Below, piece after piece: positions 9,383-64,000 of a stretch of DNA of 64,000 nucleotides. Origin of the DNA: Phycisphaerae bacterium (GTDB lineage: Bacteria; Planctomycetota; Phycisphaerae; SM23-33); assembly GCA_009783465.1 (NCBI GenBank), contig WRDM01000002.1, positions 42,097 to 106,096 on the forward strand, written 5' to 3'. The notes below the pieces were generated by a model. That model worked only from the letters and a program-made list of their open reading frames with translations. It had not been told where the DNA came from and made no database searches. How positions within the stretch are numbered: the stretch's first letter is position 1; each line of letters starts with the position of its first letter. The position numbers and the translations under genes were made by a program.

Positions 9383-10508
9383 GCCTCATCGCGCGCAGAC
9401 GATCGCGTTGGCCCTGCTGGCGACGGTTGGCGTGGCGGCGTGGGTTGTCATGTATTGGCTTGGCGACCGCGCGAGGTTGTGGCAGTCGTTGTTGGTGGCG
9501 TTTGTGTATTTCTCGCCGCTGGCGGGCGGGCTGGTCGTCTGGTCGGCGGTCGTGAATCTTTCCAACGGGCGATGGACGGGGACGATGGAAAAGGCCGCCC
9601 TGTGGGGCCTGGGCGGCTGGGCGGTGGCGATCGCGCTGTTCGTGCTGCTGGCGGCGCTGTTCGTGCCGTCGTGGGCTTCGCGATGCGAAAACCCAACCTG
9701 GGCCTGCTGGCAGAGCGATCGGCGGGCCGACGCGGGGAAGGATTTCTGGCTGTCGTCCGAGTTCCTCTTCGCGAGAAACGCGGCGGCGCTACTGGCGTTC
9801 TGGGCCGTGGCCGCGTGGTATGTCCGCCGGCGAATGCGAGGCCTGCCCGCCCGAGGCCTCGCCACCGGCGTGGTCCTGCTGTACGTGCTGAGCATGACGC
9901 TGATCGGCTACGATCTGGTGATGAGCCTGGACCCGGTCTGGTTCAGCTCGCTGCTGGCGCCATACGTGTTCATCTCGGGCATGTACACCGCGACAGCCGC
10001 CTGGGCGATCGTCGCCGCCGACAGCGGCCTGCTCGAGCCGACCGACCGCCGGCACGACCTCGGCAAGCTGATCGTCACGTTCAGCCTGCTCACCATGTAC
10101 ATGATGTACGGTCAACTATTGTGCATCTGGTACGGCAACCTGCCGCCAGAATTGCGGTTCGTCGTGCCGCGGCTGCGACATCCGCCGATGCAGTACGTCA
10201 GCCTGCTCCTGCTGGGCACGGTCTACCTCGGCCCGCTGGTGCTCATGCTGCCGCGATGGGTCAAACGCCGCCCCGCGCCGCTGCGGCTGATGGCCGTGTG
10301 GGTGCTCGTGTTCATGTACGTCGAGCGATGGTGGCTGATCGTGCCGACGTTCCATCAAGGCCACGACGTGATCAGCCTGCCCATCGACCTGCACGCCGGC
10401 GACGCCGCTGTCGCACTCGCCGCCGTCGCGGGGACGGCCCTGGGAATCCGCCACGTACGACGCGCCGGGCCGGACCATGACGTCGCGGAGAAAGGCGGCG
10501 CGACATGA
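9369..10508 (+). CDS. actF: Alternative complex III ActF-like polytopic membrane subunit
   Basis: 379 aa, ~10 predicted TM helices, position after ActC/D and before pentaheme ActA; ATG overlaps upstream stop. Confidence 0.6.
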   Translation: MSSNEPHRAQTIALALLATVGVAAWVVMYWLGDRARLWQSLLVAFVYFSPLAGGLVVWSAVVNLSNGRWTGTMEKAALWGLGGWAVAIALFVLLAALFVPSWASRCENPTWACWQSDRRADAGKDFWLSSEFLFARNAAALLAFWAVAAWYVRRRMRGLPARGLATGVVLLYVLSMTLIGYDLVMSLDPVWFSSLLAPYVFISGMYTATAAWAIVAADSGLLEPTDRRHDLGKLIVTFSLLTMYMMYGQLLCIWYGNLPPELRFVVPRLRHPPMQYVSLLLLGTVYLGPLVLMLPRWVKRRPAPLRLMAVWVLVFMYVERWWLIVPTFHQGHDVISLPIDLHAGDAAVALAAVAGTALGIRHVRRAGPDHDVAEKGGAT

Positions 10509-11017
10509 CGAGTCATCGCCCCGCCGCCGTGCTCGCGCTGGTGCTCTTCCTGACGCTGCTGGCCGCGGCGGCGGTGTATTTCCTGCCCTGGCCCGCCGCC
10601 ATCGGACCGGCCCAACCCGTCGCGTTCAGCCATCGCGTCCACGCGGGCGTCAAACAGATCAGTTGCATCTTCTGCCACCCCGGCGTGATCGACGGCCCGC
10701 ACGCCACCGTGCCGCCCGTGGCCAAGTGCATGCTCTGCCACCAGAAAATCATTCCGAAACACCCGGAAATCGTCAAAATCCGCCAGGCCTACGAACGCGA
10801 CACGCCCATCGCGTGGGTCAAAGCAAACGACGTCCCCGAGTTCGTCTACTTCACACACGAGCGGCACATTCGCGAGGGCATCGACTGCGGCCGATGCCAC
10901 GGCAACGTCACCGCCATGGATCGCCTCGCCGCCGCGACCGAACTGAACATGGGTTTCTGCATCCCCTGCCACCGGGACAACAAGGCGAGTGTGGATTGCT
11001 ATGTGTGCCATAGGTAG
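10505..11017 (+). CDS. actA: Alternative complex III ActA, membrane-anchored pentaheme cytochrome c
   Basis: N-terminal TM helix; five CxxCH motifs (CIFCH, CMLCH, CGRCH, CIPCH, CYVCH); start overlaps actF stop. Confidence 0.7.
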   Translation: MTSHRPAAVLALVLFLTLLAAAAVYFLPWPAAIGPAQPVAFSHRVHAGVKQISCIFCHPGVIDGPHATVPPVAKCMLCHQKIIPKHPEIVKIRQAYERDTPIAWVKANDVPEFVYFTHERHIREGIDCGRCHGNVTAMDRLAAATELNMGFCIPCHRDNKASVDCYVCHR

Positions 11018-11023
11018 GGAAGA

Positions 11024-11172
11024 AGCCAGTAGCCAATAGCCAGTAGGTATGGAACGGCATCGGCAAAAAACAACGACAGCGGGAACAGATAACGATGCGG
11101 CCAAAATCAGAATCGTGTGTTTTGCAACTGGCTTCGCCATACCTACTGGCTACTGGCTATTGGCTACTGGCT
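11024..11172 (+). repeat. operon-hairpin element (OPH family), forward orientation, between actA and ccoN
   Basis: agccagtagccaatagccagtaggtatggaacggcatcggcaaaaaacaacgacagcgggaacagataacgatgcggccaaaatcagaatcgtgtgttttgcaactggcttcgccatacctactggctactggctattggctactggct. Confidence 0.85.
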
Positions 11173-11192
11173 AAAACCGTGCCCTGTAAACA

Positions 11193-12593
11193 ATGAATCG
11201 ACGACAAACCATCTTCCGCAAACCCAACTCCGCCGCGTTGGCCTGGCTTCTCGCCGGCGCGGTGTGGTTTGCCATGGGGACGACCTGGGGGCTGTTTTCG
11301 GCGGCCCATCTCATCGCGCCGGAATTGTTCGATAATATTAGCTGGCTGGTATTCGGGCGGACCAGGCCTGTGCATGTCAACACGGTGATTTTCGGATTCG
11401 TCGCGCCCATGTTGATCGGGGCGGCGCTGCATTACGTGCCCGCCCTGCTCAAAACGAGGCTGTGGTCCGAGCCGCTGGGCTGGCTTGCCTGGCTGGCGTG
11501 GAACGCCGCCGTCGCCAGCGGATTCATCCTGCTGCCGCTGGGCATCACGCAGGGCCGGGAGTACGCCGAGTATATTTTCCCCTTCGACGTGTGCATCATG
11601 GTCGCGCTGGTGCTGCTGATCGTGAATCTGGTGATGACCATCGCCACCCGCCGCGAGCCGCTGCTGTATGTGAGCGTGTGGTACGTGGTGGGCATGGCCG
11701 TGTGGACGGCAGGCGTGTATCCGATCGGCAACGTGATGTGGCAGCCCGCCACCGGCGCGATGCCCGGCGTGCTGGACTCGATTTTCCTGTGGTTTTACGG
11801 CCATAATCTCGTCGGCCTGCTGCTGACGCCGCTGGCGACCGCGGCGGCGTATTTCGTCGTCCCCCGCGTCACGCGCACGCCGCTCTACAGCCACACGCTC
11901 AGCCTGGTGGGCTTCTGGATCCTGCTGACGCTCTACACGCACATCGGGGCGCACCACCTTCTCCAGGCGCCGGTGCCGAATTGGCTCAAGACCCTCTCCG
12001 TCGTCGATTCCATGGCCATGATGCTGCCGGTTTTCACCGTGCTGATGAATCTCTGGCTGACCGCGCGAGGCCGGGGCGGCAGGCTGTGGCGCGACGTCGG
12101 CGGGCGGTTCGTGATGTTCGGGCTGATCCTGTATTTCGTCACCTGCGTGCAAGGCCCGCTGCAAAGCCTGCCCAGCGTGCAGCGTGTCACGCACTTCACC
12201 AACTGGACGATCGGCCACGCGCACATCGCCGTGCTGGGATTCGCGGGGTTCATCGCGCTGGGGGCGATGTGGCACACGCTGCCGGGCATCCTCGGCCGTC
12301 GGCTGTTTTCGACCCGACTCGTCAGCGTCCAGTTCGGCCTGCTGATGACGGGCGTGGTGGGCTTCTTCCTCGTGCTGTCGATCGCAGGCCTGGTGCAGGG
12401 TACCAACTGGGCCAACGGCAACGTGGAATACAACACCCTGCCGATGATGCCCCCCTACATGATCCTCCGCGGCGCGATGGGCCTGCTGATCGTCACCGCC
12501 GCGTGGGTAGGGCTGTACAACTGCGTGAAAACGATACGCCGTAAGGAACGTGCAACCGAGTTGGCGACAAAGCCAGTAGCCAATAGCCAGTAG
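11193..12593 (+). CDS. ccoN: cbb3-type cytochrome c oxidase subunit I (CcoN)
   Basis: 466 aa, 12 TM; HLIAPELFDNISWLVFGRTRPVHVNTVIFGF and FLWFYGHNLVGLLLTPL match CcoN signature helices; last 7 codons (KPVANSQ*) are supplied by the OPH repeat arm. Confidence 0.75.
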   Translation: MNRRQTIFRKPNSAALAWLLAGAVWFAMGTTWGLFSAAHLIAPELFDNISWLVFGRTRPVHVNTVIFGFVAPMLIGAALHYVPALLKTRLWSEPLGWLAWLAWNAAVASGFILLPLGITQGREYAEYIFPFDVCIMVALVLLIVNLVMTIATRREPLLYVSVWYVVGMAVWTAGVYPIGNVMWQPATGAMPGVLDSIFLWFYGHNLVGLLLTPLATAAAYFVVPRVTRTPLYSHTLSLVGFWILLTLYTHIGAHHLLQAPVPNWLKTLSVVDSMAMMLPVFTVLMNLWLTARGRGGRLWRDVGGRFVMFGLILYFVTCVQGPLQSLPSVQRVTHFTNWTIGHAHIAVLGFAGFIALGAMWHTLPGILGRRLFSTRLVSVQFGLLMTGVVGFFLVLSIAGLVQGTNWANGNVEYNTLPMMPPYMILRGAMGLLIVTAAWVGLYNCVKTIRRKERATELATKPVANSQ

Positions 12594-12720
12594 GTAAGGC
12601 ACGACATTGGCGAAACGGCAGTGACAGCGGGAACGGATACAAAAATGGCAACGGCCAGGATCGTATGACTGGCGACAGGCTTCGCCATACCTACTGGCTA
12701 TTGGCTATTGGCTACTGGCT
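12571..12720 (+). repeat. operon-hairpin element (OPH family), forward orientation, overlapping ccoN stop codon
   Basis: agccagtagccaatagccagtaggtaaggcacgacattggcgaaacggcagtgacagcgggaacgg...ggatcgtatgactggcgacaggcttcgccatacctactggctattggctattggctactggct. Confidence 0.85.
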
Positions 12721-12738
12721 TTTTCCAAAAGGATTCCC

Positions 12739-13731
12739 ATGAAAATGACCCCAGCCTTCCTCATCCTCGGCGGGTTGCTGATTTTCTGGACCAGCACGTT
12801 TATCGCCGTCATCTTGCCGGCGATGACGTTGGGCGACGAGCCGTCGGCGATCTGGAGGCCTCGCGAAGCCGATGAGGCGCGCGGGGCACAGCTCTACATC
12901 GACAACGGCTGTTCGTACTGCCACAGCCAGTTCGGGCGCACGTTCGACTGGGGACTGGGGCGGCAGCGCGTCGCCGAACAAGGCGACTACTACGCCATGC
13001 AGCCGGTCATCCTCGGCACTGAACGCTGGGGACCCGACCTCCAGCAGGCCGGCGGCGAACACCCCGACGGCTGGCACCACGCGCACTTCCTCAACCCGCG
13101 AAACACACGACCGCTCTCCCTCATGCCGTCGTGGGAATTTCTCGGCGAAAAAAATATCGAAGCCCTCACGCGATACGTGCAGTCCAACTGGGGCACGCTC
13201 GCCGACGAACGCATGGCCAGACAGCGGCACTGGGAGACCCAGTTCGTGGCCGCGTACGAATCCGGCGCCGACGCCAACGTCGCGTTCCTGCACGCCAACG
13301 TCCCGCCGACCTGGCGGGCCATGCCAAATCCCTACCCCGCCGACGAAGCCGCCCTCCAGCGCGGACAATTGATTTACCAATGGTACTGCATCGCCTGTCA
13401 CGGCGAAGTCGGCGACGGCAAAGGCCGGGGCGGACTTGCGACCTTCCGAGGCCGCCCCGCCATCTATCCGCCGCCGATGAACTTCACCACGCTACGGCGA
13501 AACCTGATCGAGGACAAATACATCGGCGGCATTTTTTATTACCAGATCATGAACGGCATCACGGGCACGGCCATGCCGTACTTTAAACACGAACTCACGA
13601 GCGAAAAAATCTGGGACGTCTCCAATTACATCGCGGTGCGCTTCGTAGGCTACACCGACGCGGGCCTGGAACCCCGCGGCATCGAGGCGTCGTATGAATC
13701 TGCGGGAGACGACGGTGAAAACAAACCGTAA
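12739..13731 (+). CDS. ccoO: cbb3 oxidase monoheme subunit CcoO fused to an extra C-terminal class-I cytochrome c domain (CcoP-like)
   Basis: N-terminal TM; CSYCHSQ heme motif; ERWGPDLQQAGG...DGWHHAHFLNPR matches FixO/CcoO (GPDL...WH..H.LNPR); second CIACHGEVGDGKG heme site in C-terminal ~130 aa. Confidence 0.65.
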   Translation: MKMTPAFLILGGLLIFWTSTFIAVILPAMTLGDEPSAIWRPREADEARGAQLYIDNGCSYCHSQFGRTFDWGLGRQRVAEQGDYYAMQPVILGTERWGPDLQQAGGEHPDGWHHAHFLNPRNTRPLSLMPSWEFLGEKNIEALTRYVQSNWGTLADERMARQRHWETQFVAAYESGADANVAFLHANVPPTWRAMPNPYPADEAALQRGQLIYQWYCIACHGEVGDGKGRGGLATFRGRPAIYPPPMNFTTLRRNLIEDKYIGGIFYYQIMNGITGTAMPYFKHELTSEKIWDVSNYIAVRFVGYTDAGLEPRGIEASYESAGDDGENKP

Positions 13732-14630: not shown

Positions 14631-15038
14631 ATGGCCAAAACCTTCGAAGAGTATCGCGTGCTTTCTCAACCGGCGGCGTGGGCGTTGCTGTTTCTGCTGG
14701 CCGGTGGCATTCTCGCGTGGGGCCTGTTCGTGAAATCCGTCATTCCCAACACACCGCGCGTCCACAACTACGGCGCCCTGCCCGACGCACCGGGACAATC
14801 CATCTACTCCACAAACCCCACGCCGCGCGACACCACCGCACCGCCGCAATATCAAACGCTCCCCGAAGCCAAACGTGACGCGGGCGTCTCGCCCGCGTTG
14901 TGCGTTCCATTGGCCGAGGCACCGGAAAACGATCTCTCGACTTCGCCATCCGGCACGGGCAAGATGCCCGCGGGACACGAGGGCGGGACGCCCTCGTCAC
15001 GTGAGACGCCCACATCACACGCAGAGGCGTCGCCATGA
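14631..15038 (+). CDS. small membrane protein whose C-terminal third is encoded by an in-frame palindromic element
   Basis: N-terminal TM (AWALLFLLAGGILAWGLFV); C-terminal ...AKRDAGVSPALCVPLAEAPENDLSTSPSGTGKMPAGHEGGTPSSRETPTSHAEASP*; stop overlaps next start (ATGA). Confidence 0.35.
   Translation: MAKTFEEYRVLSQPAAWALLFLLAGGILAWGLFVKSVIPNTPRVHNYGALPDAPGQSIYSTNPTPRDTTAPPQYQTLPEAKRDAGVSPALCVPLAEAPENDLSTSPSGTGKMPAGHEGGTPSSRETPTSHAEASP
14874..15004 (+). repeat. in-frame palindromic element (IPE family) forming the C-terminus of a small membrane protein
   Basis: AAACGTGACGCGGGCGTCTCGCCCGCGTTGTG...CACGGGCAAGATGCCCGCGGGACACGAGGGCGGGACGCCCTCGTCACGTGA. Confidence 0.85.
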
Positions 15039-15629: not shown

Positions 15630-15719
15630 CGGAGAGGTCGGGATTCGAACCCGAGGTACGGCGTTAAACCGTACACCGGTTTAGCAAACCGGCGCTTTCA
15701 GCCGCTCAGCCACCTCTCC
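15630..15719 (-). tRNA. tRNA-Ser (anticodon GCU)
   Basis: Reverse complement GGAGAGGTGGCTGAGCGGCTGAAAGCGCCGGTTTGCTAAACCGGTGTACGGTTTAACGCCGTACCTCGGGTTCGAATCCCGACCTCTCCG: 7-bp acceptor stem, anticodon loop TTGCTAA, long variable arm, GGTTCGAATCC T-loop; architecture matches E. coli tRNA-Ser(GCU). Confidence 0.85.
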
Positions 15720-21909: not shown

Positions 21910-23454
21910 CTACGTAGCCGCCGCTCCAAAACGTACGATCGGTCCAACCAGGCGCTCCATCGCCATGCCTCGCGAGCCTTTGATCAGGATCGTGTCGCCC
22001 GCTCGCAGCAGCGCGGGCAAGGCCTCGATGGCGGACTCGACGGAATCGAACTCCGCCGTCCGCGCCGTCGCGCCCGCCGACGCGGCGCCTCGCGCGATAT
22101 ATCGTCCCAACAGGCCGATTCCAATGAGAAAATCCACCCGCCCAGACGCGATCTCCCTGCCCGTCCGTTCGTGCAGCGAAATCGTCGACTCGCCAAGCTC
22201 TCGCATGTCGCCGGCGATCATCACGCGACGCGCGCCCGGCTGGTCGCCCAGCACGTCCGCGGCCGCGGCCATGCTGGCGGGGTTGGCGTTGTACGCGTCG
22301 TTAATCAGCCGCACGCTGCCGGCGGGCACGGCCTCCAGCCGCATCTCCACGCCACCGAAATCCGCCAACGCCGCCGCCGCGTCCTCCGCGCTCACGCCCA
22401 GACACGCCGCGGCCGCCATCGCCGCCGTCGCGTTGCTCGCACTGTGACGTCCCGGCTGCGGCAACACCACGCGCACGTCCCGCCCGCCAACGCGAACGGA
22501 AAACCGCACGCAGTCCGCGCCACCCTCGAAATCCACCAGCCGCCAATGGGCATCCGCCGACTGGCCAAACCATGTCACCGCCGCTCCACCCGTCGCCGCA
22601 ACCGCTTCGCGACGCAACGACTCGTTGTCCGCCCACACCACCGCCTGGCCCGCTCCGCGCAGCCCTGCGTAGCTCAACGAGCGAAGCAGGGACGCCTTCT
22701 CCTTCGCCACCAATTCCAGGCTGCCAAGTTTTTCCAGGTGCGTCTCGCCCACCGACGTAATCACGGCCACGTCGGGCCGGCAGATCTCGCCCAATTGCGT
22801 GATCTCGCCCGGCGCGTTCGTACCGACCTCGCACACGACGTACTGATCGCACTCGCCAACGCCCAACAGCGTCAGCGGCACGCCGATGTTGTTATTAAAA
22901 CTCTTCGGACTGCACGTTCCGTGTAAACGTGACGCGGGCGTCCCGCCCGCGACACGACTCAGAATGTGATGCAACATCCGCTTGGTGGTCGTCTTTCCGT
23001 TGGACCCCGTGACGGCGATCACGCGGGCGGGCATCGCGTCGCGGTGCCACCGTCCCAGCCTGCCCAACGCCGCCAGCGTGTCCGACACGCCAATCAACCG
23101 ATCGCCAAACCGCCGCGCCAAATCAGCCGGCAGCGGCACGCGAACATCCACCAGCGCCCCGCCCGCGCCGGCGGCGAACGCCTGCGGAAGAAAATCGTGC
23201 GCGTCGAATGTCTCGCCCTTGATCGCGATAAACAACGGCCCGTCCGGCCCAATCTTCCGACTGTCCATTTCGACGGCCTCGACACTCACCGCCGCCAGCG
23301 AACGTACGGCAGCGCTGGCGACATTCACATCCGCGCCGGCGCAGTCCGCGCCAGGCCACCAGAACGATTGGCCGTCCACGATTTTTCGAATGTCTTCCAG
23401 CGACGTCCGCTTCATAACAACACACCTGGCAATACATTCTGCTATCACATCCAA
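21910..23454 (-). CDS. murF: UDP-N-acetylmuramoyl-tripeptide--D-alanyl-D-alanine ligase, carrying a partial in-frame palindromic element
   Basis: Mur ligase domains (GSNGKTTTK P-loop, NNNIGVPLTLL); peptide SRVAGGTPASRLHG encoded by element fragment at 22927-22956. Confidence 0.8.
   Translation of the reverse strand: MDVIAECIARCVVMKRTSLEDIRKIVDGQSFWWPGADCAGADVNVASAAVRSLAAVSVEAVEMDSRKIGPDGPLFIAIKGETFDAHDFLPQAFAAGAGGALVDVRVPLPADLARRFGDRLIGVSDTLAALGRLGRWHRDAMPARVIAVTGSNGKTTTKRMLHHILSRVAGGTPASRLHGTCSPKSFNNNIGVPLTLLGVGECDQYVVCEVGTNAPGEITQLGEICRPDVAVITSVGETHLEKLGSLELVAKEKASLLRSLSYAGLRGAGQAVVWADNESLRREAVAATGGAAVTWFGQSADAHWRLVDFEGGADCVRFSVRVGGRDVRVVLPQPGRHSASNATAAMAAAACLGVSAEDAAAALADFGGVEMRLEAVPAGSVRLINDAYNANPASMAAAADVLGDQPGARRVMIAGDMRELGESTISLHERTGREIASGRVDFLIGIGLLGRYIARGAASAGATARTAEFDSVESAIEALPALLRAGDTILIKGSRGMAMERLVGPIVRFGAAAT
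22927..22956 (-). repeat. in-frame palindromic element fragment (single hairpin unit) inside murF
   Basis: acgtgacgcgggcgtcccgcccgcgacacg. Confidence 0.7.
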
Positions 23455-23759: not shown

Positions 23760-25304
23760 TCATCGTTTCACCAACATCTCGCGCACCACTTCGGCATCAT
23801 CAAAATGATGTTTGGTTTCCTCGACAATCTGGTACGTTTCGTGCCCTTTGCCGGCTAACAAAATCACGTCGCCTTCGCGGGCGTGCTGAATCACCCGCTC
23901 GATCGCCTTGCGGCGGTCGGGTTCGACGTGCGTTTTGGCCAGGCCTGCCGGTGTGAAGCCGGCGAGGATTTCGTCGATGATCGCGCGGGGGTCTTCCGTT
24001 CGCGGGTTGTCGCTGGTGACGACGACGGCGTCAGCAAGTTCTTCTGCCACGCGGGCCATCCGAGGCCGTTTGAGTCGGTCGCGATCGCCGCCACAGCCGA
24101 ACATCACGATCAGCCGCCCCCGCGTCACGGGCCTGACCGCCGACAGCACGTTCGCCATCGCGTCGTCCGTATGAGCGTAATCCACGTACACCGTGAACGG
24201 CGCGTCCACCGGCACGCGGTCAAGCCGCCCCGGCACGCGAACGCCCTTCGTCAACGTCGAGGCGATCACGTCCCACGACACGCCCAACCCGCGACAAATA
24301 CCCGCCGCCGCGAGACCGTTCCGCACGTTGTGCTTGCCGATCAGCGGGCTGGCAATCATGATCTCACGTGACGCGGGCGTCTCGCCTGCGTTGTGCGTGC
24401 CATGGGATTGGCCATTAGAAGACGTCAAACCGTCTTCGCCCGACGCGGGCAAGATACCCGCGTCACGCATCACAAACTCCGTGCCGCGGTCGCTGATGTC
24501 GCGAATCACAGCGCCGAGCGTTCTCGGCCCGTCCAGGCCGTAACTCACCACACGGCCTCGCGTCACCGCCGCCATCGCCTCGCCCGACGGATCGTCAAAA
24601 TTAATCACCGCCGTCGCGGAGGCGGGCAACTCCGCAAAGAGAATCCGCTTGGCCGCGAGATAATTCGCCATCGTCTTGTGATAGTCCAAATGCTCGCCGG
24701 TCAAATTCGTGAACGCCGCCGCCGCGTACTCCACGCCGGCCACCCTGCCCTGATCCAGCGCGTGCGACGACACCTCCATCACCAGGTGCGTTCGACCGGC
24801 CTGTACCATCTCGGCCATCATCTCCGCCAAGTCCACCGCGCCGGGCGTGGTGTTGTTGGCCTCGACGCTGGTTTTTCCGGTTTCGTAGGCAATCGTGCCC
24901 AGCAGCGCCGGCCGATGGCCCGCCGCCTCCAGGATCGCCCGCACCAGCAGCGTGATGGTGCTTTTTCCCTTCGTGCCCGTCACGCCGATGTTGATCAACT
25001 TCCGCGCCGGCCAGCCGTGAAACGCCTGCGCCATCGGCCCGAGCGCCCGCGCGGAACTCGACACCACAGCCCACGGCACGGACGCGGGCACGGCAGCGGC
25101 ATCCTCGCACACCACCGACGTCGCCCCGCCCGCCAACGCCGCCGCGATAAAATCATGCCCATCCACCACAGGCCCGCGCACGGCCACGAAACACGCCCCC
25201 GCGGCGCAGCGTCGCGAGTCGCTCACCAGCGAGGCCACAGGCCCGTCGCCGCGGCGAACGACCACGTCCACCCCCGCCGATGCCAACAATTCCGACAGAC
25301 GCAT
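23760..25304 (-). CDS. murE: UDP-N-acetylmuramoyl-L-alanyl-D-glutamate--2,6-diaminopimelate ligase, carrying in-frame palindromic element
   Basis: Mur ligase domains (GVTGTKGKSTIT P-loop, DNPRTEDP); internal ...SSNGQSHGTHNAGETPASREIMIA... encoded by element at 24364-24469. Confidence 0.85.
   Translation of the reverse strand: MRLSELLASAGVDVVVRRGDGPVASLVSDSRRCAAGACFVAVRGPVVDGHDFIAAALAGGATSVVCEDAAAVPASVPWAVVSSSARALGPMAQAFHGWPARKLINIGVTGTKGKSTITLLVRAILEAAGHRPALLGTIAYETGKTSVEANNTTPGAVDLAEMMAEMVQAGRTHLVMEVSSHALDQGRVAGVEYAAAAFTNLTGEHLDYHKTMANYLAAKRILFAELPASATAVINFDDPSGEAMAAVTRGRVVSYGLDGPRTLGAVIRDISDRGTEFVMRDAGILPASGEDGLTSSNGQSHGTHNAGETPASREIMIASPLIGKHNVRNGLAAAGICRGLGVSWDVIASTLTKGVRVPGRLDRVPVDAPFTVYVDYAHTDDAMANVLSAVRPVTRGRLIVMFGCGGDRDRLKRPRMARVAEELADAVVVTSDNPRTEDPRAIIDEILAGFTPAGLAKTHVEPDRRKAIERVIQHAREGDVILLAGKGHETYQIVEETKHHFDDAEVVREMLVKR
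24364..24469 (+). repeat. in-frame palindromic element (IPE family) inside murE (opposite orientation to host gene)
   Basis: TCACGTGACGCGGGCGTCTCGCCTGCGTTGTG...GACGCGGGCAAGATACCCGCGTCACG. Confidence 0.85.
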
Positions 25305-34868: not shown

Positions 34869-36113
34869 TCAGTCCTGGCCCATCATCTCGAGATAGAGTT
34901 TTTCGTGGGCGGCGACCATGGTATCGACGGCGAAGGTTTCGGCGCGGCGGCGGGCGACGGTGGCCATGTGACGGCGGAGTGGCGTGTCGTGGGCGAGGCG
35001 TATCATGGCCTCGGCGAGGGCGGCAGGGTTTTCGGGCGGGATGAGCAGGCCGGTTTGGCCGGGGAGCATGACGTCGCGGAGTCCCTCGACGTCGGTGGCG
35101 ATCACGGGCAGCGAGGCGGCCATCGCTTCGACCGCCGACAGGCCAAACCCTTCCCAGCGGCTTGGCATGACCAGGAAATCGCCCGCAGAGTACAGGCCCG
35201 CGATCTCGTCAACAAACCCCGGAAACACCACCCGTACCGCCCCGTCGGCAGGCTGATTCCGCACAAATTCCTCGACCATCCCCTGCCAAGGCCCCTGCCC
35301 GGCGATGGCAACGACAAGCCGGGCCCGTGACGCGGGCGTCTCGCCCGCGTTGTGTGATCCATAGGCCTGGCCGTTAGAGGACGAACAAGCGTCTTCGCCT
35401 CCAGACGCGGACGAGACATCCGCGAGACACGCGGGCAAGATGCCCGCGTCACGTGGCCCCAACCGCTGGGCCGCCAGCGGCAACGCCTGGAGCAGAATGT
35501 CCAGCCCCTTCTGATCACATAACCGGCCGGCCCAGACGGCCAACCGATCCGCCTCGCCGACGCCAAGCCGCTCCCGCCACGCCAAGCCTCGCGACGCGTT
35601 CCGTGCATACGCGGCCAGGTCGATGCCGTTTTCGATCGTCACGCACCGCCGGGGCGAAATCCCCGACCGCCGAATGTGGTCCGCCCGCACGCTCTCCGAC
35701 ACGCACACGACAGGCCCGCGACGCTGGAACAGCCGACCGTACAGACTCCGCCACGGCAGAAACCGCCGCTCGGCTACGTGAACGGTGTGGGCCACGCGCG
35801 GCACGCCCGCCAGCCTCGCCGCCAGCCGCCCGGCCAGGTCGGCGTGGAACAAATGCGTGTGCACCATATCAAACCGCCCCGCCGCCAGCCATCGCGACAG
35901 CTCGCGAACCTTCAGCACGTCCCACTTGCCCGCCACGCCGAGCACGAACACCTCCACGCCGGCATCGCGAAGCCGCTCAGCGACGGCCCCGCCACGCAAC
36001 GCCGCCACACTCACACCAAACCGCGACCGGTCCAGCCGCGTCGCCAACTCATACACCACCCGCTCGGCGCCGGCGGGGGCAAGCTCGGTGATCATTTCAC
36101 ACACGCGAATCAT
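34869..36113 (-). CDS. GT4-family glycosyltransferase carrying in-frame palindromic element
   Basis: GT-B fold group-1 glycosyltransferase motifs (EGFGLSAVEAMAASLPVIATDVEG); internal ...ASGGEDACSSSNGQAYGSHNAGETPASRARLVV... encoded by element 35325-35456. Confidence 0.7.
   Translation of the reverse strand: MIRVCEMITELAPAGAERVVYELATRLDRSRFGVSVAALRGGAVAERLRDAGVEVFVLGVAGKWDVLKVRELSRWLAAGRFDMVHTHLFHADLAGRLAARLAGVPRVAHTVHVAERRFLPWRSLYGRLFQRRGPVVCVSESVRADHIRRSGISPRRCVTIENGIDLAAYARNASRGLAWRERLGVGEADRLAVWAGRLCDQKGLDILLQALPLAAQRLGPRDAGILPACLADVSSASGGEDACSSSNGQAYGSHNAGETPASRARLVVAIAGQGPWQGMVEEFVRNQPADGAVRVVFPGFVDEIAGLYSAGDFLVMPSRWEGFGLSAVEAMAASLPVIATDVEGLRDVMLPGQTGLLIPPENPAALAEAMIRLAHDTPLRRHMATVARRRAETFAVDTMVAAHEKLYLEMMGQD
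35325..35456 (+). repeat. in-frame palindromic element (IPE family) inside GT4 glycosyltransferase gene
   Basis: CCGTGACGCGGGCGTCTCGCCCGCGTTGTG...GACGCGGACGAGACATCCGCGAGACACGCGGGCAAGATGCCCGCGTCACGTG. Confidence 0.85.
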
Positions 36114-42651: not shown

Positions 42652-45168
42652 ATGAGCGATAAATCGTCATTGACGGCCGCTACGGCGGGATCGAAAGCCC
42701 ATCCGTGGATCTGGGTGGACGAGGACGTTCTCGGTCCAGGCCAGGTGGCATGGTTTCGGCTGCGATTCGATGCCCGCCGGGGCCAGGACGTGCGGTGGAC
42801 AGGCTTTGCCGACAGCATGTACACGTTGTATTTCAACGGGCGTGAAATGGGCGTCGGTCCGTGCACGGGATTGGCCGCCAAGCCGAGGCTGACGACGTGG
42901 AACCTGTCCTCGCTGATCTCCGACGGCAGCAACGTGCTGGCGTTGGAGGTGTGGTTCGACGACCCCAACTCGCCGCCGACCGACGTGGACATCATTCAAG
43001 CCGGCGTGCTGGGCTGGCTGAGCGTGGACGATCAGATCACGCCCACCGGCACGCAGTGGAAGGCCTGCCGGATCGCCCGCGCGGGGCTGGCCAGGAAAGA
43101 ACGCCGCAGTTTCGCCGCCCGGCGGATCACCGTGCTGGATCTGCGAGGCCGACGCAGCGACTGGCACGAACCCTTCTTCGACGACTCCCGCTGGGCGTCG
43201 GCCGTCGTGGTCGGCCGACCCGACCCGTACGAATTGCGGCACGACCCGCTCGGGCCTCTGACGTCGACGGTCCGTCCGGTGGCCTCCCTCATCGACGCGG
43301 GCGTCGCCACCGGCGGAGGCGAGGTGCAATTCGCCGACGACGTCGCCGCCCGGATGAAATCGCAGTCACACCGCAGCCTGGTGCGGAACGTCCACCGCTT
43401 CACCGTCCTCTCCACCGAGGAACGCGAAGGGCTGGCCATCTCACTGCCCCGCCCGCACCGCCTGCCGAACCTCCAGTGGACCAACGCCAACGCCGCCCCC
43501 ACAGGCCCGGTCCGCATCCCGCCCTGCGACGGCGAATTCTATCTCTGCGTCGACTTCGGCATGCAAACCAGCGGGCAGGTCTGGCTGGATATCGACTGCG
43601 CCAACACCCTCAGCGTCGACCTCGGCTACGCCGACCACCTCCGCAACGGCCGCGTCGATCCCCTGCTCCAACAGCACGCTTTCGCGGACCGCCTGATCCT
43701 CTCCAAGGGCCGGCAGTACGTCCATCTGCCGACCGATCGCGGCTTTCGCTACCTGCAAATGACCTTCAGCGGCGAGGCCACGCTGCACGAAATCTCCGTG
43801 CGCGAGCACGTCTATCCCATCGACACCCGGACACGGTTCGCGTGCAGCGACCCCACGCTCAACAGTGTGTTCGCGTTGGCCCAGACGACGGCGAGGCAGT
43901 GCTCGCTCCACTCGCACGTGGACAACGCCCGCCGCGAACGCCAGGGCTGGGGCGGGCCCGATCTCTACGCGCAGGCGCACGGCTTTTTCCACATCGCCGG
44001 CGACTTGCGGCTGACGCGGAAAATGCTCGAGGATTACGTCGATTCCTTCGACACGCACGGATTCATCCCGAATTTCTGCCCGTCGTCCATTCTGTTCCTC
44101 AAGTGGATCTCCGCGCACGACCTGTGGTTCCCTATCGTCGCGTGGGATTACATCATGTATTCCGACGACCGCGAGTTGGCCCCGCGCCTGCTGGCCGCCA
44201 GCCAGGCCGTCCTGGACTTCTACCGCCCCGACGCCAGCGGGCTGATCCTTCGCGCCCACGAAAACGCCTGCCGGTGGACCGAATGGAACATGAACTCCGC
44301 GTTCAACGCCTCGACGTGGGAGAATCTGCTGGCGATCGTCGCGTGGCGGTCCGTCTCGACCTTGCAGCGGTATCTCGGTGTGTCGGACGCCGACCAGGCC
44401 GCCGACGCCGCCAACGCGCTGGCCGCCGCCGTCAACGCCCGGCTGTGGCACGAGGAACACAACGCCCTCGCGCAGGGTACGATGGAAGACGGCAGCCTGT
44501 CGGATTTCTGTGCCCAGGTCGACAACGCCTTCGCGCTGCGGCACGACATCATCCCGCCCGACCGTGCCGAGGCGGCCTACCGATTCTGCGCCGGACGCAG
44601 CGGCACGTGGCCGACCTCGCGCAGCGGCTGGCAGGGCTACGGCCAAGGCGAACGCGTCCGCTACGACCCGCGAAAGCCCGTCGTCGCGGGCACGCCCTTC
44701 ACCAGTTCCCTGTGCGCCCAGACCATCGCGCACCTCGGCTCGCCCGCCGAGGTCGTCCAGTATCTGCGGTACAACTTCGGCGCCATGATCGACGAAGGCG
44801 AAGGCGGGCTGTGGGAGATGTGGCCGATTTTCATGCGCGAGGACGTGGCCTCGACGTGCTTCAGCCAGGGGTACGGCATCCACATCGCGGCGACGCTGAT
44901 TGGCGACGTGCTGGGGCTGCGTTTCGCCTCGCCGGGCGGTCGCGAGCTGACCTTCACGCCGCGGAACACCGGCCTGGCGTGGATCGAGGGCGAGGTGCAG
45001 ACCGTTCACGGCATCGCGCACGTCCGCCGCGAGGGCGCGAAATTCCAGTACAATCTCCCCGCCGGCGTGACGCTGCGGATCATCACGGGCCCGGCGAAAT
45101 CCGACCAGAAAATCACCGGCCAAGGCGTGGTAACCGTCCATGACCGACGTGCAAGCGACAGGCGATAG
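42652..45168 (+). CDS. glycoside hydrolase family 78-like (alpha-L-rhamnosidase-type six-hairpin) protein
   Basis: ORF trimmed to MSDKSSLTAATAG; DNARRERQGWGGPD resembles GH78 catalytic-domain DxxxRERxGWxGD motif; ~840 aa multi-domain. Confidence 0.5.
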   Translation: MSDKSSLTAATAGSKAHPWIWVDEDVLGPGQVAWFRLRFDARRGQDVRWTGFADSMYTLYFNGREMGVGPCTGLAAKPRLTTWNLSSLISDGSNVLALEVWFDDPNSPPTDVDIIQAGVLGWLSVDDQITPTGTQWKACRIARAGLARKERRSFAARRITVLDLRGRRSDWHEPFFDDSRWASAVVVGRPDPYELRHDPLGPLTSTVRPVASLIDAGVATGGGEVQFADDVAARMKSQSHRSLVRNVHRFTVLSTEEREGLAISLPRPHRLPNLQWTNANAAPTGPVRIPPCDGEFYLCVDFGMQTSGQVWLDIDCANTLSVDLGYADHLRNGRVDPLLQQHAFADRLILSKGRQYVHLPTDRGFRYLQMTFSGEATLHEISVREHVYPIDTRTRFACSDPTLNSVFALAQTTARQCSLHSHVDNARRERQGWGGPDLYAQAHGFFHIAGDLRLTRKMLEDYVDSFDTHGFIPNFCPSSILFLKWISAHDLWFPIVAWDYIMYSDDRELAPRLLAASQAVLDFYRPDASGLILRAHENACRWTEWNMNSAFNASTWENLLAIVAWRSVSTLQRYLGVSDADQAADAANALAAAVNARLWHEEHNALAQGTMEDGSLSDFCAQVDNAFALRHDIIPPDRAEAAYRFCAGRSGTWPTSRSGWQGYGQGERVRYDPRKPVVAGTPFTSSLCAQTIAHLGSPAEVVQYLRYNFGAMIDEGEGGLWEMWPIFMREDVASTCFSQGYGIHIAATLIGDVLGLRFASPGGRELTFTPRNTGLAWIEGEVQTVHGIAHVRREGAKFQYNLPAGVTLRIITGPAKSDQKITGQGVVTVHDRRASDRR

Positions 45169-46846
45169 CGATAGTGCGTTCATGGCCGCCGCGTTGGCGT
45201 GTGCGGCCTTGGGTCGCGGGCACGTCGAACCGAACCCGATGGTCGGCGCGGTGTTGGTACGCGACGGGCGGGAGATCTCCCGCGGGTTTCATCGGCGATT
45301 CGGCGGGCATCACGCGGAGGTGGAGGCCGTGCTCGCCGCCCGCGCCGCCGGGACCGACCTGCGCGGCGCGACGCTCTATGTCACGCTCGAGCCGTGCTGC
45401 CACACCAACAAAAAAACACCCCCCTGCGCGCCGATGCTCGCGGGGCTGGGCCTGCGACGCGTCGTCGTCGCGATGGAGGATCCCGACCCCAACGTGCGAG
45501 GCCGCGGATTGGCCATGCTTCGCGACGCGGGCGTGGCGATAACAACCGGCGTGTGCGAAGCGGCCGCGAAAACTCTGTTGCGTGCGTACGTCAAACTGCG
45601 AACGCAGGGCAGGCCGTGGGTGATCTGTAAATGGGCGCAGACCGCCGACGGCTATCTCGCGCTGCCGCCGTCGGCGGGGCGATGGATCAGCGGCGAGGCG
45701 TCGCGGCGGGACGTCCACCGCCTGCGGGGCCTGTGCGACGCGATCCTCGTCGGCGTGGGCACGGTGCTCGCCGACGACCCCCTGCTCAACAACCGCTCCG
45801 GCGAAGGCAAACAGCCAACCCGCATCGTGCTGGACACCCATCTCCGCACGCCGCCAACCAGCCGACTCGTCCAGACCGCCCGCGAGTTCCCGCTGATGAT
45901 CGTCACACAAGCACACAACGCGGGCGAGACGCCCGCGCCACGTAGCACGGGCGTCCCGCCCGTGAGTCGCATGGGCGTCTCGCCCATGCAACCGCAGCCG
46001 ATCAGCGAAACGTTCCTGATGCAAGCCGACGCGCTCCGCAACGCCGGCGTGGAACTCCTCGAACTGTCCACCGACGACAGCTTCGGTGGCAAAATCCACC
46101 TCCCCGCCCTGCTGGACGAACTGGGCCGGCGACGCATGACGTACCTGCTCGTCGAAGGCGGACACCGCGTGCTGCAACGTTTCCTCCACGCCGGCCTGGC
46201 GGACGAAATGCGAACGTACACCTCGCCACGAACCCTCCGCGACGAGTTCCTGTCCGAAGCCCTCGCCACGCTGCCGCACATGGACACACGGGAATTTCCG
46301 TCGCCAGGCATGGACTTGGAAGTCAGCCAGCCGCTCGGCGAGGATACGCTGCGCGGCTACGCGCGGGCAGCCGCGACCGTCCGTTCAGGCGAGGACAAGC
46401 GAAAACATGGCGAAGATGACGGCGGCGTTACTCGTCTGACAGGCAACGAATTAGGCGATGGCCTGGTGTTCGACCGGCTTTTGGAGGAAGCACGGAAGTA
46501 CGCCAGAACGAATTTTTTCGACAAAAAAGTGGCCATCGAGTCCGAAGGCGTTGAGGTTCTGGTTGCGATGAGTGGGATCAAACACACGCTGACAGCCGCT
46601 AAAACGAATGAGGATATCTATGCGGTTATCGCATTGCCTCAACTTCTACAGCGTGCCGTCAAGACAGGAGAATCGCCCGACAAACGCAACCGGAATAACG
46701 TCGTTGCCGTTGAGCGATATCGGGCTCCGCTCCGCATTGGCGACAATACGTACATGGCCGAGATGATTGTGAGAGTGGAGAAAAAAAGCACGAGAATGCT
46801 GGGCCATCTTCGCGTGTTCCACCACCAAGAACTGAAGGGCCTGTAG
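45140..46846 (+). CDS. ribD: riboflavin biosynthesis deaminase/reductase RibD with in-frame palindromic element and a ~150-aa low-GC C-terminal extension
   Basis: CMP/dCMP deaminase zinc motif (HAEVEA...PCCH...C) and RibD_C reductase domain; QAHNAGETPAPRSTGVPPVSRMGVSPMQPQP insert (45914-45988); residues after ~420 (nt ~46400-46846) have markedly lower GC and no RibD homology. Confidence 0.75.
   Translation: MTDVQATGDSDSAFMAAALACAALGRGHVEPNPMVGAVLVRDGREISRGFHRRFGGHHAEVEAVLAARAAGTDLRGATLYVTLEPCCHTNKKTPPCAPMLAGLGLRRVVVAMEDPDPNVRGRGLAMLRDAGVAITTGVCEAAAKTLLRAYVKLRTQGRPWVICKWAQTADGYLALPPSAGRWISGEASRRDVHRLRGLCDAILVGVGTVLADDPLLNNRSGEGKQPTRIVLDTHLRTPPTSRLVQTAREFPLMIVTQAHNAGETPAPRSTGVPPVSRMGVSPMQPQPISETFLMQADALRNAGVELLELSTDDSFGGKIHLPALLDELGRRRMTYLLVEGGHRVLQRFLHAGLADEMRTYTSPRTLRDEFLSEALATLPHMDTREFPSPGMDLEVSQPLGEDTLRGYARAAATVRSGEDKRKHGEDDGGVTRLTGNELGDGLVFDRLLEEARKYARTNFFDKKVAIESEGVEVLVAMSGIKHTLTAAKTNEDIYAVIALPQLLQRAVKTGESPDKRNRNNVVAVERYRAPLRIGDNTYMAEMIVRVEKKSTRMLGHLRVFHHQELKGL
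45914..45988 (-). repeat. in-frame palindromic element (IPE family, three hairpin units) inside ribD
   Basis: cacaacgcgggcgagacgcccgcgccacgtagcacgggcgtcccgcccgtgagtcgcatgggcgtctcgcccatgc; left end is exact reverse complement of the IPE terminal repeat. Confidence 0.8.
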
Positions 46847-62170: not shown

Positions 62171-62256
62171 GAACCCCCTGTGAAAAGAGGGCTGTATATG
62201 CGTTTGTCGTGGCATTTCCTCTTGGCCAATGGCTGAAACGACGGTACCTTTTCGGC

Positions 62257-63345
62257 ATGCATGATGTCGTGATTGAACGCGTGCCTTTGTCGCGTCGGCG
62301 GGCAGCGATGAGGTTTCTCATCGGCGGTTCGTCGCGCGACACGTTTACGCGGATGCAGGCGGATTCGTTGTATCAGCGCACGCTGGGCGCCGACGCGGGC
62401 CTGGCGGAATTGTGGTGGGCGCGGCGAGGGCGGACGGAGCTGGCGGCGGCGATGATCTATCACAACGTCGGACGGACAGGCACGCTGTTGGCCAGTCCGG
62501 CGGCAGCGCCGGACGTCGACGCCCAACAACTCGCCCGCCTCGTCGGCGAACTGTCGCGGGCCGAAATCCGCCGCGGGTTGTCGATGATCCAGACACTCCT
62601 GCCGGCCGAGGCGAAACCCGAATTGGCCATGCTCGGCCAGGCGGGTTATCACCGCTTGGCCGAACTGGCGTACATGCAGCTGGCCGTGCCGCTGGCGTGT
62701 AACACGGGCATCTTGCCCATGAGTCGCATGGGCGTCCCGCCCATGCAAACGCCGCCAGCAGATCAGGCCTTCACATCACAGATAAATACAAACGAAGCGA
62801 TTATGCCATATGCCGAGCATGGGCGAGACGCCCATGCGGCTCACGGGCAAGATGCCCGTGCTACGTTTCACGTCGCAGCCGAGTTTCCCGCGCGGGAGCT
62901 GGAACAGATCATCCGCCGCAGTTACGAGGACTCGCGGGATTGTCCGGGACTGGCGGGCGTGCGCGATCTCGGCGACGTCGTCGCGGGGCATCGCGCCAGC
63001 GGGCTGTTCTCGCCCGAAAGCTGGTGGATCGTCCACGTCGAGGGCCAATCGGCAGGCTGCCTGCTGCTGAACGAATCCCTCACCGGGCAGGACGGCGAAA
63101 TCGTCTACCTCGGCGTGGCGCCGGAATTTCGCCGCCAGGGCATCGCACGGACCATGCTCGTCCAGGCGATTTCGCACGCACAGCGCGTCTCCTGGCGGCG
63201 GTTGACGCTGGCCGCCGACTCGTCAAACCTGCCTGCCGTCAGGCTTTACGAATCGTTCCAGTTCGCCGTCTCGCACCGTCGCGACGCCTGGATTTTCACG
63301 CGGCGCGACGTGGCTGAGGGTTTCCCCTCAAAAAACCGCTGTTAA
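62257..63345 (+). CDS. GNAT-family N-acetyltransferase with in-frame palindromic element in N-terminal half
   Basis: C-terminal GNAT core (VYLGVAPEFRRQGIARTML, acetyl-CoA Q/RxxGxA motif); insert CNTGILPMSRMGVPPMQTPPADQAFTSQINTNEAIMPYAEHGRDAHAAHGQDARATFHVA at 62705-62872. Confidence 0.55.
   Translation: MHDVVIERVPLSRRRAAMRFLIGGSSRDTFTRMQADSLYQRTLGADAGLAELWWARRGRTELAAAMIYHNVGRTGTLLASPAAAPDVDAQQLARLVGELSRAEIRRGLSMIQTLLPAEAKPELAMLGQAGYHRLAELAYMQLAVPLACNTGILPMSRMGVPPMQTPPADQAFTSQINTNEAIMPYAEHGRDAHAAHGQDARATFHVAAEFPARELEQIIRRSYEDSRDCPGLAGVRDLGDVVAGHRASGLFSPESWWIVHVEGQSAGCLLLNESLTGQDGEIVYLGVAPEFRRQGIARTMLVQAISHAQRVSWRRLTLAADSSNLPAVRLYESFQFAVSHRRDAWIFTRRDVAEGFPSKNRC
62705..62872 (+). repeat. in-frame palindromic element (IPE family, catgggcg/cacgggca hairpin-unit variant with AT-rich centre) inside GNAT gene
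   Basis: gggcatcttgcccatgagtcgcatgggcgtcccgcccatgc...(AT-rich 45 nt)...gagcatgggcgagacgcccatgcggctcacgggcaagatgcccgtgctacgtttcacg. Confidence 0.8.
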
Positions 63346-63567: not shown

Positions 63568-64000
63568 ATGAACAGTGTGACGCCCGTGGTGCGCGCCAAA
63601 ACCAAACCCGACAGGCCTGCCGACGCGAACGGCTCCTCGCCCGTCTGCGAAATCTCGCCCAACCTGCAAGCCGTGCTGTCGGCTTTGGAAAAACGTCTCG
63701 GCACGCAGAAATTCAACGCGTGGTTCCGGCACGGGCTTCGGCTGACGCTGGAAGGCGACGTGCTCCGCGTGTTCGCCTCGAACGCGTTCGCGGCGAACTG
63801 GATCGACACGCACTACTCTCGCGATTTGTCGGCCGTCGCGACGGAACAACTTGCCTTGGCGGTGACGGTTTCGGTGGCGGTCGATCACGGCCTGACGGGC
63901 GACCTGCGGAAGCGGCAACGCGATTCGCAGGCGACGGCGGTAGACATGGCCGTGCAGGGGCGCGCCCGGTCGCGGCAGGCGGGCGAAGCATCGCCGTTGC
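63568..64000 (+). CDS. dnaA: chromosomal replication initiator DnaA, N-terminal part (runs off window)
   Basis: MNSVTPVVRAKTKPD...LQAVLSALEKRLGTQKFNAWFRHGLRLTLEGDVLRVFASNAFAANWIDTHYSRDL matches DnaA domain I; open to window end; not in ORF track because no stop. Confidence 0.75.
   Translation, partial: MNSVTPVVRAKTKPDRPADANGSSPVCEISPNLQAVLSALEKRLGTQKFNAWFRHGLRLTLEGDVLRVFASNAFAANWIDTHYSRDLSAVATEQLALAVTVSVAVDHGLTGDLRKRQRDSQATAVDMAVQGRARSRQAGEASPL

Follow-up and report, generated by a model that had tools for sequence, protein, structure and literature searches.

The 64,000-nucleotide stretch of DNA analysed here (hereafter the window; 62.7% GC, from a Phycisphaerae metagenome-assembled genome, MAG) carries a family of short hairpin modules inserted in-frame into its genes, the most elaborate case discussed below being that of a GNAT acetyltransferase gene. 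These copies have the architecture of repetitive extragenic palindromes (REPs), of their inverted doublets (REPINs) and of bacterial interspersed mosaic elements (BIMEs) of the GTAG superfamily, and are thus of a kind already known and not a new type of element. We consider it probable that they represent a GTAG-superfamily REP/REPIN family, acting as the substrate of a REP-associated tyrosine transposase (RAYT) and filtered by selection into frame-neutral copies within genes, the link to the enzyme and the mobility being drawn from relatives of this genome. The surprising result lies beyond the window. A RAYT whose catalytic motifs appear intact at the sequence level is found in-frame within valS, the gene of the valyl-tRNA synthetase (ValRS), in the best 120 ValRS homologues, mostly labelled as Phycisphaerae.

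A strict hairpin search of the window returned 21 intact copies of one hairpin unit in nine clusters, together with two chance look-alikes. The pattern GGGCN5GCCC was matched 22 times for 3.6 expected, a number reached by none of 100 shuffles, and the 23-nt terminus pattern, with up to two mismatches, 15 times for 0.01 expected. All nine clusters lie within open reading frames (ORFs), without stop or frameshift, and the host ORFs have Pfam domains or homology on either side of the insert. The arrangement varies: some copies are singlets or head-to-head dimers, others form tandem arrays of 24-nt period or inverted arms that enclose variable spacers. The initial annotation had described in-frame hairpin modules in the GNAT, ribD and GT39 genes and seen in them a combinatorial set of short modules and not one fixed sequence, and both statements hold, the first at all three sites. 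Beyond the window, the 23-nt terminus recurs in Planctomycetota MAGs, in more than 80 stretches, a number that is a lower bound. Exact matches to it were also seen in contigs labelled Acidobacteria, Verrucomicrobiaceae, Kiritimatiellae, Binataceae, Actinoplanes, Acidimicrobiales and Nitrospiraceae (loci L004, L005, L017, L020, L048, L060, L068, L077 and L080), which could be due to chance, to mis-binning or to a wider distribution.

The anatomy of the unit was derived from the window and 80 genome loci pooled, the units being selected solely by the core GGGC-N-TCY-N-GCCC, which left 223 unique sequences. Each unit is 24 nt long and consists of a 5' GT(G/A)N tag followed by a GC-rich hairpin. 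The first and last bases of the apparent loop (positions 1 and 5) are Watson-Crick partners in 212 of the 223 (A-T in 114 and G-C in 97, with 108 expected if the two were independent), so that the hairpin in fact has a stem of 8 bp and a TCY/RGA loop of 3 nt. Of the variable outer pairs, one is Watson-Crick in 198 and the other in 200 of the 223, each with three pair types, while the bases beyond the stem are unpaired; folding also predicted local hairpins for the units. The covariation at the three variable stem positions supports the pairing of the stem, and its strength indicates that the units form one family. The seemingly different hairpin units thus represent a single hairpin with compensatory variation, and the doubt initially raised, that they might prove unrelated on proper alignment, is dispelled by their homology. 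The tag is polar and lies 5' of the stem, at positions -7 to -4 (GTGA in 87, GTGG in 44, GTGT in 31, GTAG in 15 and GTGC in 9 of the 223), and the elements have defined ends, reading GTGACG...CGTCAC or else GTAG/GTAA...CTAC. Neighbouring units are spaced by exactly 24 nt in 53 of 143 cases and by a multiple of three in 98 of the 143 (p 1e-17).

Two subfamilies are present in the window. One has CGC/CGA stems and the GTGA tag and makes the elements of 126 and 99 nt described below; the other has CAC/CAT stems and the GTAG tag and is found in ribD (ccacGTAGcacgggc) and in the GNAT gene (GTAAcacgggc...gcccgtgCTAC). GTAG-tagged, two-hairpin inverted arms with variable spacers, short or long and often AT-rich, occur as well at Planctomycetota MAG loci L047, L062, L030 and L023. 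Set against the definition of a REP as a palindrome of 20-40 bp with a stem of 6-9 bp, the unit has an 8-bp stem and a 3-nt loop, and the characteristic tag is there as GTAG in ribD and as GTAA...CTAC in GNAT. The inverted arrangement with a short spacer and a long hairpin that distinguishes REPINs is seen in the GNAT copy and in the 126-nt copies (z of -11 and -8.8 for the respective folds). Two features depart from the usual description: the GTGA tag does not figure among the variants listed in PMC3733652, and the location is not predominantly extragenic, the nine clusters of the window being genic without exception.

The copy in the GNAT gene (62699-62864) begins with the tag GTAA (62699-62702) and ends with CTAC (62861-62864). 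It is built of two inverted two-hairpin arms of 44 nt each, with 93% complementarity between them over 44 nt (blastn E 5.6e-12). The left arm contains units at 62703-62721, with one stem mismatch, and at 62727-62745 (catgggcgtcccgcccatg), and the right arm units at 62818-62836 (catgggcgagacgcccatg) and 62842-62860 (cacgggcaagatgcccgtg). Three of these four had been described correctly by the initial annotation, which missed the one at 62703-62721; its AT-rich centre of 45 nt is also real, as a core of 43 nt (62770-62812, with 35% GC against the average of the window) inside a spacer of 72 nt (62746-62817) that as a whole has 49% GC. As single-stranded DNA the element is predicted to fold into one long hairpin with a minimum free energy of -57.4 kcal/mol (the z of -11 given above). 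Neither a promoter nor a terminator was found within it. The way the frames are arranged, together with a faint resemblance to a RAYT C-terminus, had suggested that the spacer might be the remnant of an internally deleted RAYT gene. This idea was rejected, as a hidden Markov model (HMM) built from more than 120 RAYTs and run unfiltered on all six frames of the window (best E 8.6) gave nothing at the GNAT site.

The host gene (62209-63345, forward strand) encodes a two-domain GNAT acetyltransferase with a Pfam Acetyltransf_1 domain at residues 268-351; it is NCBI MCL2700237.1, the start of which is an internal Met. The element encodes residues ~163-219, that is, the linker between the domains, and in the predicted structure the sole internal stretch whose pLDDT falls under 50, residues 164-215, separates two domains that score above 90. 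No insert is present there in homologues at 33-39% identity, whereas those at 61-65% have different REP versions in that position. In four orthologues at 61-69% identity, the boundaries of the insertion are common (...gccgtgcc.ctggc/GTRRCAC...CYAC/g(g)tttcac) and the contents differ: a four-unit GTAG REPIN in the window, a 150-nt CGC-type element in L001 (4243-4392), a GTGA-type element plus a remnant in L164 (~520-640) and a decayed remnant in L163 (~6420-6500). This comparison of sequences suggests either long-term occupancy of the linker with turnover, or REPs that serve as targets for the insertion of further REPs. A long occupancy would agree with the long persistence reported for REPINs.

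The cluster in ribD (45911-45991) belongs to the same module set, with three units that give three local hairpins as single-stranded DNA (z -6.1). It had been described as three units chained in reverse orientation, and the number is right, the reversal applying only to the first (45919-45937), followed by two forward units at 45946-45964 and 45970-45988. The first two form a head-to-head dimer in which the CCAC tag of the reversed unit (45938-45941) abuts the GTAG (45942-45945) of the forward one, and the third comes after the linker agtcg. The copy is thus a mixed-subfamily dimer plus one unit. Units 2 and 3 match the left arm of the GNAT element at 94% and the reverse complement of its right arm at 92%. 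The in-frame peptide is NAGETPAPRSTGVPPVSRMGVSPMQ, and the stretch in which it falls finds no counterpart in alignments with solved RibD structures (query residues 240-317 against 232-274 of the chain). The host gene (45140-46846, forward strand) is, by Pfam and structure alignment, a RibD with deaminase and RibD_C domains and an LPD3-like C-terminal extension. The ORF runs on for some 200 residues beyond the end of RibD, with a Pfam LPD3 match (large polyvalent protein-associated domain 3; E 7.9e-17, residues 448-551, ~46480-46795); this reflects either read-through into a neighbouring gene or a fusion of an unusual kind.

The third site is an ORF of 556 amino acids (341-2011, forward strand; GC content at third codon positions, GC3, of 0.83) that encodes a PMT-like membrane protein. 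The GT39 label given to it initially goes back to a Pfam PMT match (PF02366) below threshold (E 0.001; it scores 19.1 bits, the cut-off being 22.7), and we would speak of a weak PMT/GT39 likeness. Nor is the copy a single unit, as had been thought: it is a two-unit remnant (1042-1088) matching the right arm of the 126-nt copies, with a decayed unit at ~1042-1060, an intact one at 1066-1084 (cgcgggcgagacgcccgcg) and the tag as CCAC at 1085-1088, the GGGC cores of the two units being exactly 24 nt apart. Its in-frame peptide is EGKLSSPHAGETPAPR.

The remaining six clusters are of the GTGA-tagged kind. Elements of 126 nt (132 nt with the flanking CAC/GTG) occupy four sites: 6004-6135 in ActB, where it separates the Molybdopterin domain from the Molydop_binding domain and the predicted single-stranded fold is one long hairpin (z -8.8); 8751-8882, in the linker between ActC (NrfD) and ActD in a single ORF; 14872-15003, in the C-terminal tail of a small ORF (14631-15038); and 35324-35455, between the two Rossmann domains of a GT4 glycosyltransferase (34869-36113, reverse strand). 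A 99-nt element with one unit per arm (24365-24469) lies in a MurE-like ORF (23760-25304, reverse strand), and a solo tagged unit (22926-22955, peptide SRVAGGTPASRL) in a Mur ligase ORF (21910-23454, reverse strand); all are translated in-frame. In the ActC-ActD ORF (7436-9382) the element encodes exactly the linker (query residues ~438-481), whereas ActC and ActD are separate chains in four solved complexes of alternative complex III (ACIII), and this ORF may be a gene fusion created by a stop-free REP. Decayed extra units adjoin intact elements, ggcgagatgcccgc directly upstream of the ActB copy (~5975-6003) and gcggacgagacatccgcg inside the GT4 copy (35395-35415), which indicates that clusters erode in place. 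As to other features, a scan of the entire window at Rfam gathering level assigned the repeats to no known RNA family and matched a tRNA gene alone (RF00005, 60 bits; 15630-15719, reverse strand, 90 nt), which is unrelated to them.

The near-perfect inverted ends of the 126-nt copies, and a size typical of MITEs (miniature inverted-repeat transposable elements), might suggest conventional MITEs, with terminal inverted repeats moved in trans by a DDE transposase that leaves target-site duplications. We regard this as hardly probable at all. No direct repeats flank the five full copies, where the bases (c)ac/gt(g) merely prolong the inverted repeat; the ends are autonomous hairpin units that occur also alone and in arrays; and the sole transposase found bounded by such ends is a Y1 HUH enzyme. 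The five copies of 126 and 99 nt have common arms and divergent centres. Among the four of 126 nt, identity is 95% in one arm, 82% in the other and 56% in the centre, so that it is the arms which are constrained or homogenised.

Several features of the modules bear on their presence in coding sequences. The units contain no stop codons except for the TGA/TAG of the tag in one frame, their period is eight codons and the lengths of the genic elements are multiples of three, so that an insertion into a gene is not automatically lethal. Paired termini were a multiple of three in length in 28 of 40 cases within ORFs and in 7 of 24 outside (Fisher p 0.002; the latter mostly of 86, 89 or 113 nt), numbers that are approximate since the pairing is crude and the ORF calls heuristic, based on the longest ORF and on GC3 (the frame with the best difference between GC3 and second-position GC was dropped as a criterion since it picked shadow ORFs). 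The 92 units in confident ORFs are read in the frames G-V/I-S/L/P-P (37), G-Q/R-D-A (28) and G-E/G/K-T/M-P (21), with 4 in Arg-rich frames and 2 in the frame closed by the tag; Arg-rich frames thus account for 4 of 90, versus an expectation of 40% (p 7.5e-15). The GT4, ActB and ActC-ActD copies sit between Pfam domains, and those of the two Mur ligases and of RibD_C lengthen a domain. We infer that insertion is roughly indiscriminate and that selection keeps the frame-neutral copies with tolerable peptides at permissive sites.

The same observations could be read as retention through usefulness, the copies providing flexible linkers rich in Gly, Pro and Asp, or hairpins in the mRNA that pause ribosomes at domain boundaries, with their origin by transposition being secondary. 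The position at domain boundaries in GNAT, GT4, ActB and ActC-ActD, the strong bias in frame use and the occupancy of the GNAT site over a long divergence would all fit. However, purifying selection acting on random insertions yields the same pattern, distant GNAT homologues function without the insert, and there are copies within domains (the two Mur ligases and RibD_C) and others outside ORFs, of lengths that are not multiples of three and in both orientations. What is conserved, moreover, is the DNA palindrome, with its compensatory changes, and not the peptide. We therefore find usefulness very unlikely as the primary explanation.

Within the window neither tblastn nor the family HMM on six frames found a RAYT. 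The search for a mobilising Y1 or RAYT enzyme that the initial annotation proposed was positive in relatives. In L001, the JGI (Joint Genome Institute) metagenome contig with the orthologous GNAT locus, valS (9636-13484, 1282 residues) has a Pfam Y1_Tnp match in the middle of the protein (33.2 bits against a cut-off of 23), due to an in-frame insert of 762 nt (10299-11060) with the motifs YLPHW, HVH (HVHVV) and YYDH (EYYDH). Its left boundary is GTGACGCGGGCGTCTCGCCCGCG and its right boundary CGCGGGCGGGACGCCCGCGTCAC, which are the termini of the 126-nt elements of the window; two units flank the insert to the left and four to the right. A Planctomycetota MAG (L006, ~2270-3085, reverse strand) has a 57%-identical RAYT at the same site of valS, flanked by these units as well, and a metagenome scan gave 11 further contigs arranged alike (L084-L088, L090, L092, L093, L095, L104 and L106); in these 11 and the contig of L001 the frame is intact, free of stops, in 12 out of 12. 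The insertion site lies between Y(L/M)xYPL(V/E)E and (I/V)TH(V/I)TVATTRPETMLGD, and the flanking units are of the CGC type in some contigs and of the CAY type, like those of the GNAT copy, in L104 and L085. Stand-alone homologues of the L001 enzyme, at 55-63% identity, number in the thousands and are annotated "REP element-mobilizing transposase RayT".

The association is general among the closest synthetases. All of the best 120 ValRS homologues (935-1469 residues; P0132-P0251) contain the RAYT, under the names Phycisphaerae, Sedimentisphaerales, Phycisphaerales and Planctomycetota and including the cultured Anaerobaca lacustris (P0218), in whose ValRS an insert of 248 residues takes the place of residues 205-208 of the Thermus enzyme (1GAX), where the catalytic fold meets the editing domain. 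All 120 have the HUH motif PNH(V/I)H, and 115 have the tyrosine motif E-x-Y-D-H (EYYDH in 106, ESYDH in 8, EHYDH in 1), and NY(V/I)xxNP, the Y---NP context, is visible in the alignments. With the HUH motif, the tyrosine motif and the flanking REPs, the protein nested in valS has the attributes of a RAYT, or class 2 TnpA_Y1. We found no paper in the searchable literature that describes a RAYT together with valyl-tRNA synthetase or with Phycisphaerae. In the survey by Quentin 2018 (PMC6006769), unexpectedly long TnpA_Y1 proteins were discarded as fusions or errors, and the ValRS-RAYT would have been discarded with them. Two side observations may be added. In L001 a second, ordinary REP element lies in-frame further along valS (11656-11784, peptide GAGVPPACPEGVPPSASAVEDGSTSSRDQAHGTHNAGETPAPR), and in a stand-alone RAYT homologue of 232 residues (P0018, NCBI) the N-terminus consists of REP-unit peptides (GETPVLRGLGVPPM...HGQDAQAT), an indication that gene callers elsewhere, too, read flanking REPs as coding.

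The connection of this enzyme with the window comes from synteny. Directly downstream of the GNAT gene is the start of dnaA (63568-63975, forward strand; 67% identity to residues 1-149 of the L001 DnaA), and the gene order in L001 is GNAT, dnaA, a hypothetical gene and valS with its RAYT. Since dnaA begins at 63568, the end of the window probably lies near the region of the chromosomal replication origin, and by the synteny with L001 the valS of this genome is probably a few kb past that end. By inference from the sequences of its relatives, its RAYT would be nested there as in them.

IS200/IS605-type Y1 transposases act on single-stranded DNA hairpins at replication forks. The hairpin and its tag would be what is recognised and cleaved by the RAYT, a Y1 HUH transposase, which would excise and paste the units as single-stranded DNA, probably also at replication forks. 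The copies that genes have kept are at linkers and loops, with lengths of a multiple of three and read in the G-x-x-P or G-(Q/R)-D-A frames instead of the Arg-rich ones. The GNAT copy belongs to the GTAG/CAY-stem subfamily, as a REPIN of four units whose AT-rich spacer is private to it, and is accommodated in a disordered interdomain linker. The earlier proposal of a spread linked to replication or repair, without a transposase acting on fixed ends, is not supported; its link to replication is not wrong, given where Y1 transposases work, yet an enzyme is implicated.

Replication slippage, template switching, or repair and gene conversion between palindromes, all without an enzyme of this kind, remain the version of that proposal to be weighed. 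Slippage could enlarge tandem 24-nt arrays of variable unit number, and probably does add to the variation in unit number within clusters, and gene conversion could explain both the differing REP versions at the GNAT site and the near-identical arms next to diverged centres; the lack of a transposase in the window points the same way. But slippage cannot seed nine unlinked sites in 64 kb, or many genomes, and in the units the polar tag is conserved and the ends are defined. In addition, a RAYT that appears catalytically intact, flanked by the same units, is conserved in the relatives. A spread free of enzymes is very unlikely on these grounds.

Several observations nonetheless weigh against a RAYT-mobilised family filtered by selection. 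The link to the enzyme rests on relatives and on the GNAT-dnaA synteny, the window itself being devoid of a RAYT, and the GTGA/CGC and GTAG/CAY subfamilies coexist, so that one RAYT may not serve both. The AT-rich spacer of the GNAT copy has no other copy in the window or in 82 loci (L001-L082). No empty/filled polymorphism was found; the GNAT site is occupied in all four orthologues, so that some copies may be old relics. Finally, besides the approximate nature of the genic and non-genic numbers, a long ORF spans 80 of the 134 clusters at other loci (60%), compared with 81% of random positions; about 40% are thus not spanned, and the wholly genic location in the window could be partly a matter of sampling.

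A more far-reaching view, which we put forward tentatively and would rate as possible rather than probable, is that Phycisphaerae harbour a REP-RAYT system wholly inside coding sequence. The RAYT would be a permanent in-frame domain of ValRS, flanked by REPs, located between the Rossmann fold and the CP1 editing domain and translated with the synthetase, and it would seed stop-free modules in 24-nt phase into dozens of genes, among them the GNAT, ribD and PMT-like genes of the window, making linkers and possibly fusions such as that of ActC and ActD. If this is true, the RAYT could not be lost or silenced without losing ValRS, an essential protein. The ValRS-nested RAYT is in this sense a candidate for a domesticated transposase that cannot be lost, which bears on the long vertical persistence of RAYT/REPIN systems, and the cultured host Anaerobaca lacustris makes it accessible to experiment. 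At a more practical level, the modular in-frame elements can now be given a name, REP/REPIN repeats. Annotators of Planctomycetota should expect REP-encoded stretches of the G-x-x-P and G-Q/R-D-A types in ordinary enzymes, and should take them neither for domains nor for assembly errors. The data also amount to a natural experiment on tolerated insertions, with lengths of a multiple of three, positions in linkers and loops and avoidance of the Arg-rich frame.

Among known systems, one with a similar effect on proteins is that of the Rickettsia palindromic elements (RPEs), reportedly described by Ogata et al. in 2000. They occur in the reduced genomes of intracellular bacteria, whereas the lineage studied here is free-living and GC-rich, and to our knowledge they have no associated RAYT. 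Like the elements of the window they are palindromes, of ~100-150 bp, found in-frame in many unrelated genes, where they add a peptide at permissive sites. The likeness is functional only, lying in the in-frame insertion, as the RPE tag is CGTC (PMC3733652) and the one found here is GTRN on the strand with the TCY loop. A CGTC-tagged, RPE-like superfamily was considered because the termini read CGTCAC, and was rejected since the GTRN tag is on the other strand.

The BIMEs of E. coli are mosaics of a few REP variants in alternating orientation, joined by short linkers. The combinatorial use of variants is the same here, but BIMEs are extragenic and have defined linker motifs that bind IHF or gyrase. 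IS200/IS605 elements, for their part, are multi-copy and carry their own transposase. With them the present family has in common a Y1 enzyme, subterminal hairpins recognised as single-stranded DNA and no target-site duplication, and it differs in comprising hundreds of non-autonomous hairpins and an apparently single, vertically inherited enzyme gene. RAYTs and the IS200/IS605 enzymes belong to the same superfamily (PMC6006769).

Intragenic REPs are not without precedent, and according to Di Nocera 2013 (PMC3733652) they are most numerous in Opitutus terrae and, as RPEs, in Rickettsia conorii, encoding 20-80 residues. Those of O. terrae, a member of the Verrucomicrobia and so of the same Planctomycetes-Verrucomicrobia-Chlamydiae (PVC) superphylum, come like ours as singlets, dimers and groups in known genes, with a similar contribution of ~20-80 residues, GTGG-mutated tags and tRNA synthetase genes among the hosts (PMC3733652). 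In the present case it is the RAYT itself, and not REPs alone, that is inside a gene, and the likeness is one of description.

GTAG REPs and their RAYTs are said to have been treated by Nunvar in 2010. In E. coli, Pseudomonas and Stenotrophomonas (PMC3733652, PMC6006769 and Bertels & Rainey 2011, PMC3116915), these systems have, as here, a polar 5' GT(A/G)N tag and a GC-rich stem-loop of 6-9 bp; they occur as singlets, clusters and inverted dimers with spacers of 20-100 bp and the potential for a long hairpin, with several families in one genome; and their Y1 HUH gene (NHVH, Y---NP) is flanked by the same units, tags outward. GTAG REPs were already known in Planctomycetes, with coexisting families per genome, dimers with 20-100 bp spacers and GTRG variants of the tag, such as GTGG in O. 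terrae (Di Nocera 2013, PMC3733652). Unlike in those systems, all clusters of the window and some 60% elsewhere lie in ORFs and are translated in-frame, the units are phased at 24 nt, or eight codons, with tags that are mostly GTGA or GTGG, and the lineage's RAYT lies in-frame within valS instead of forming a stand-alone gene.

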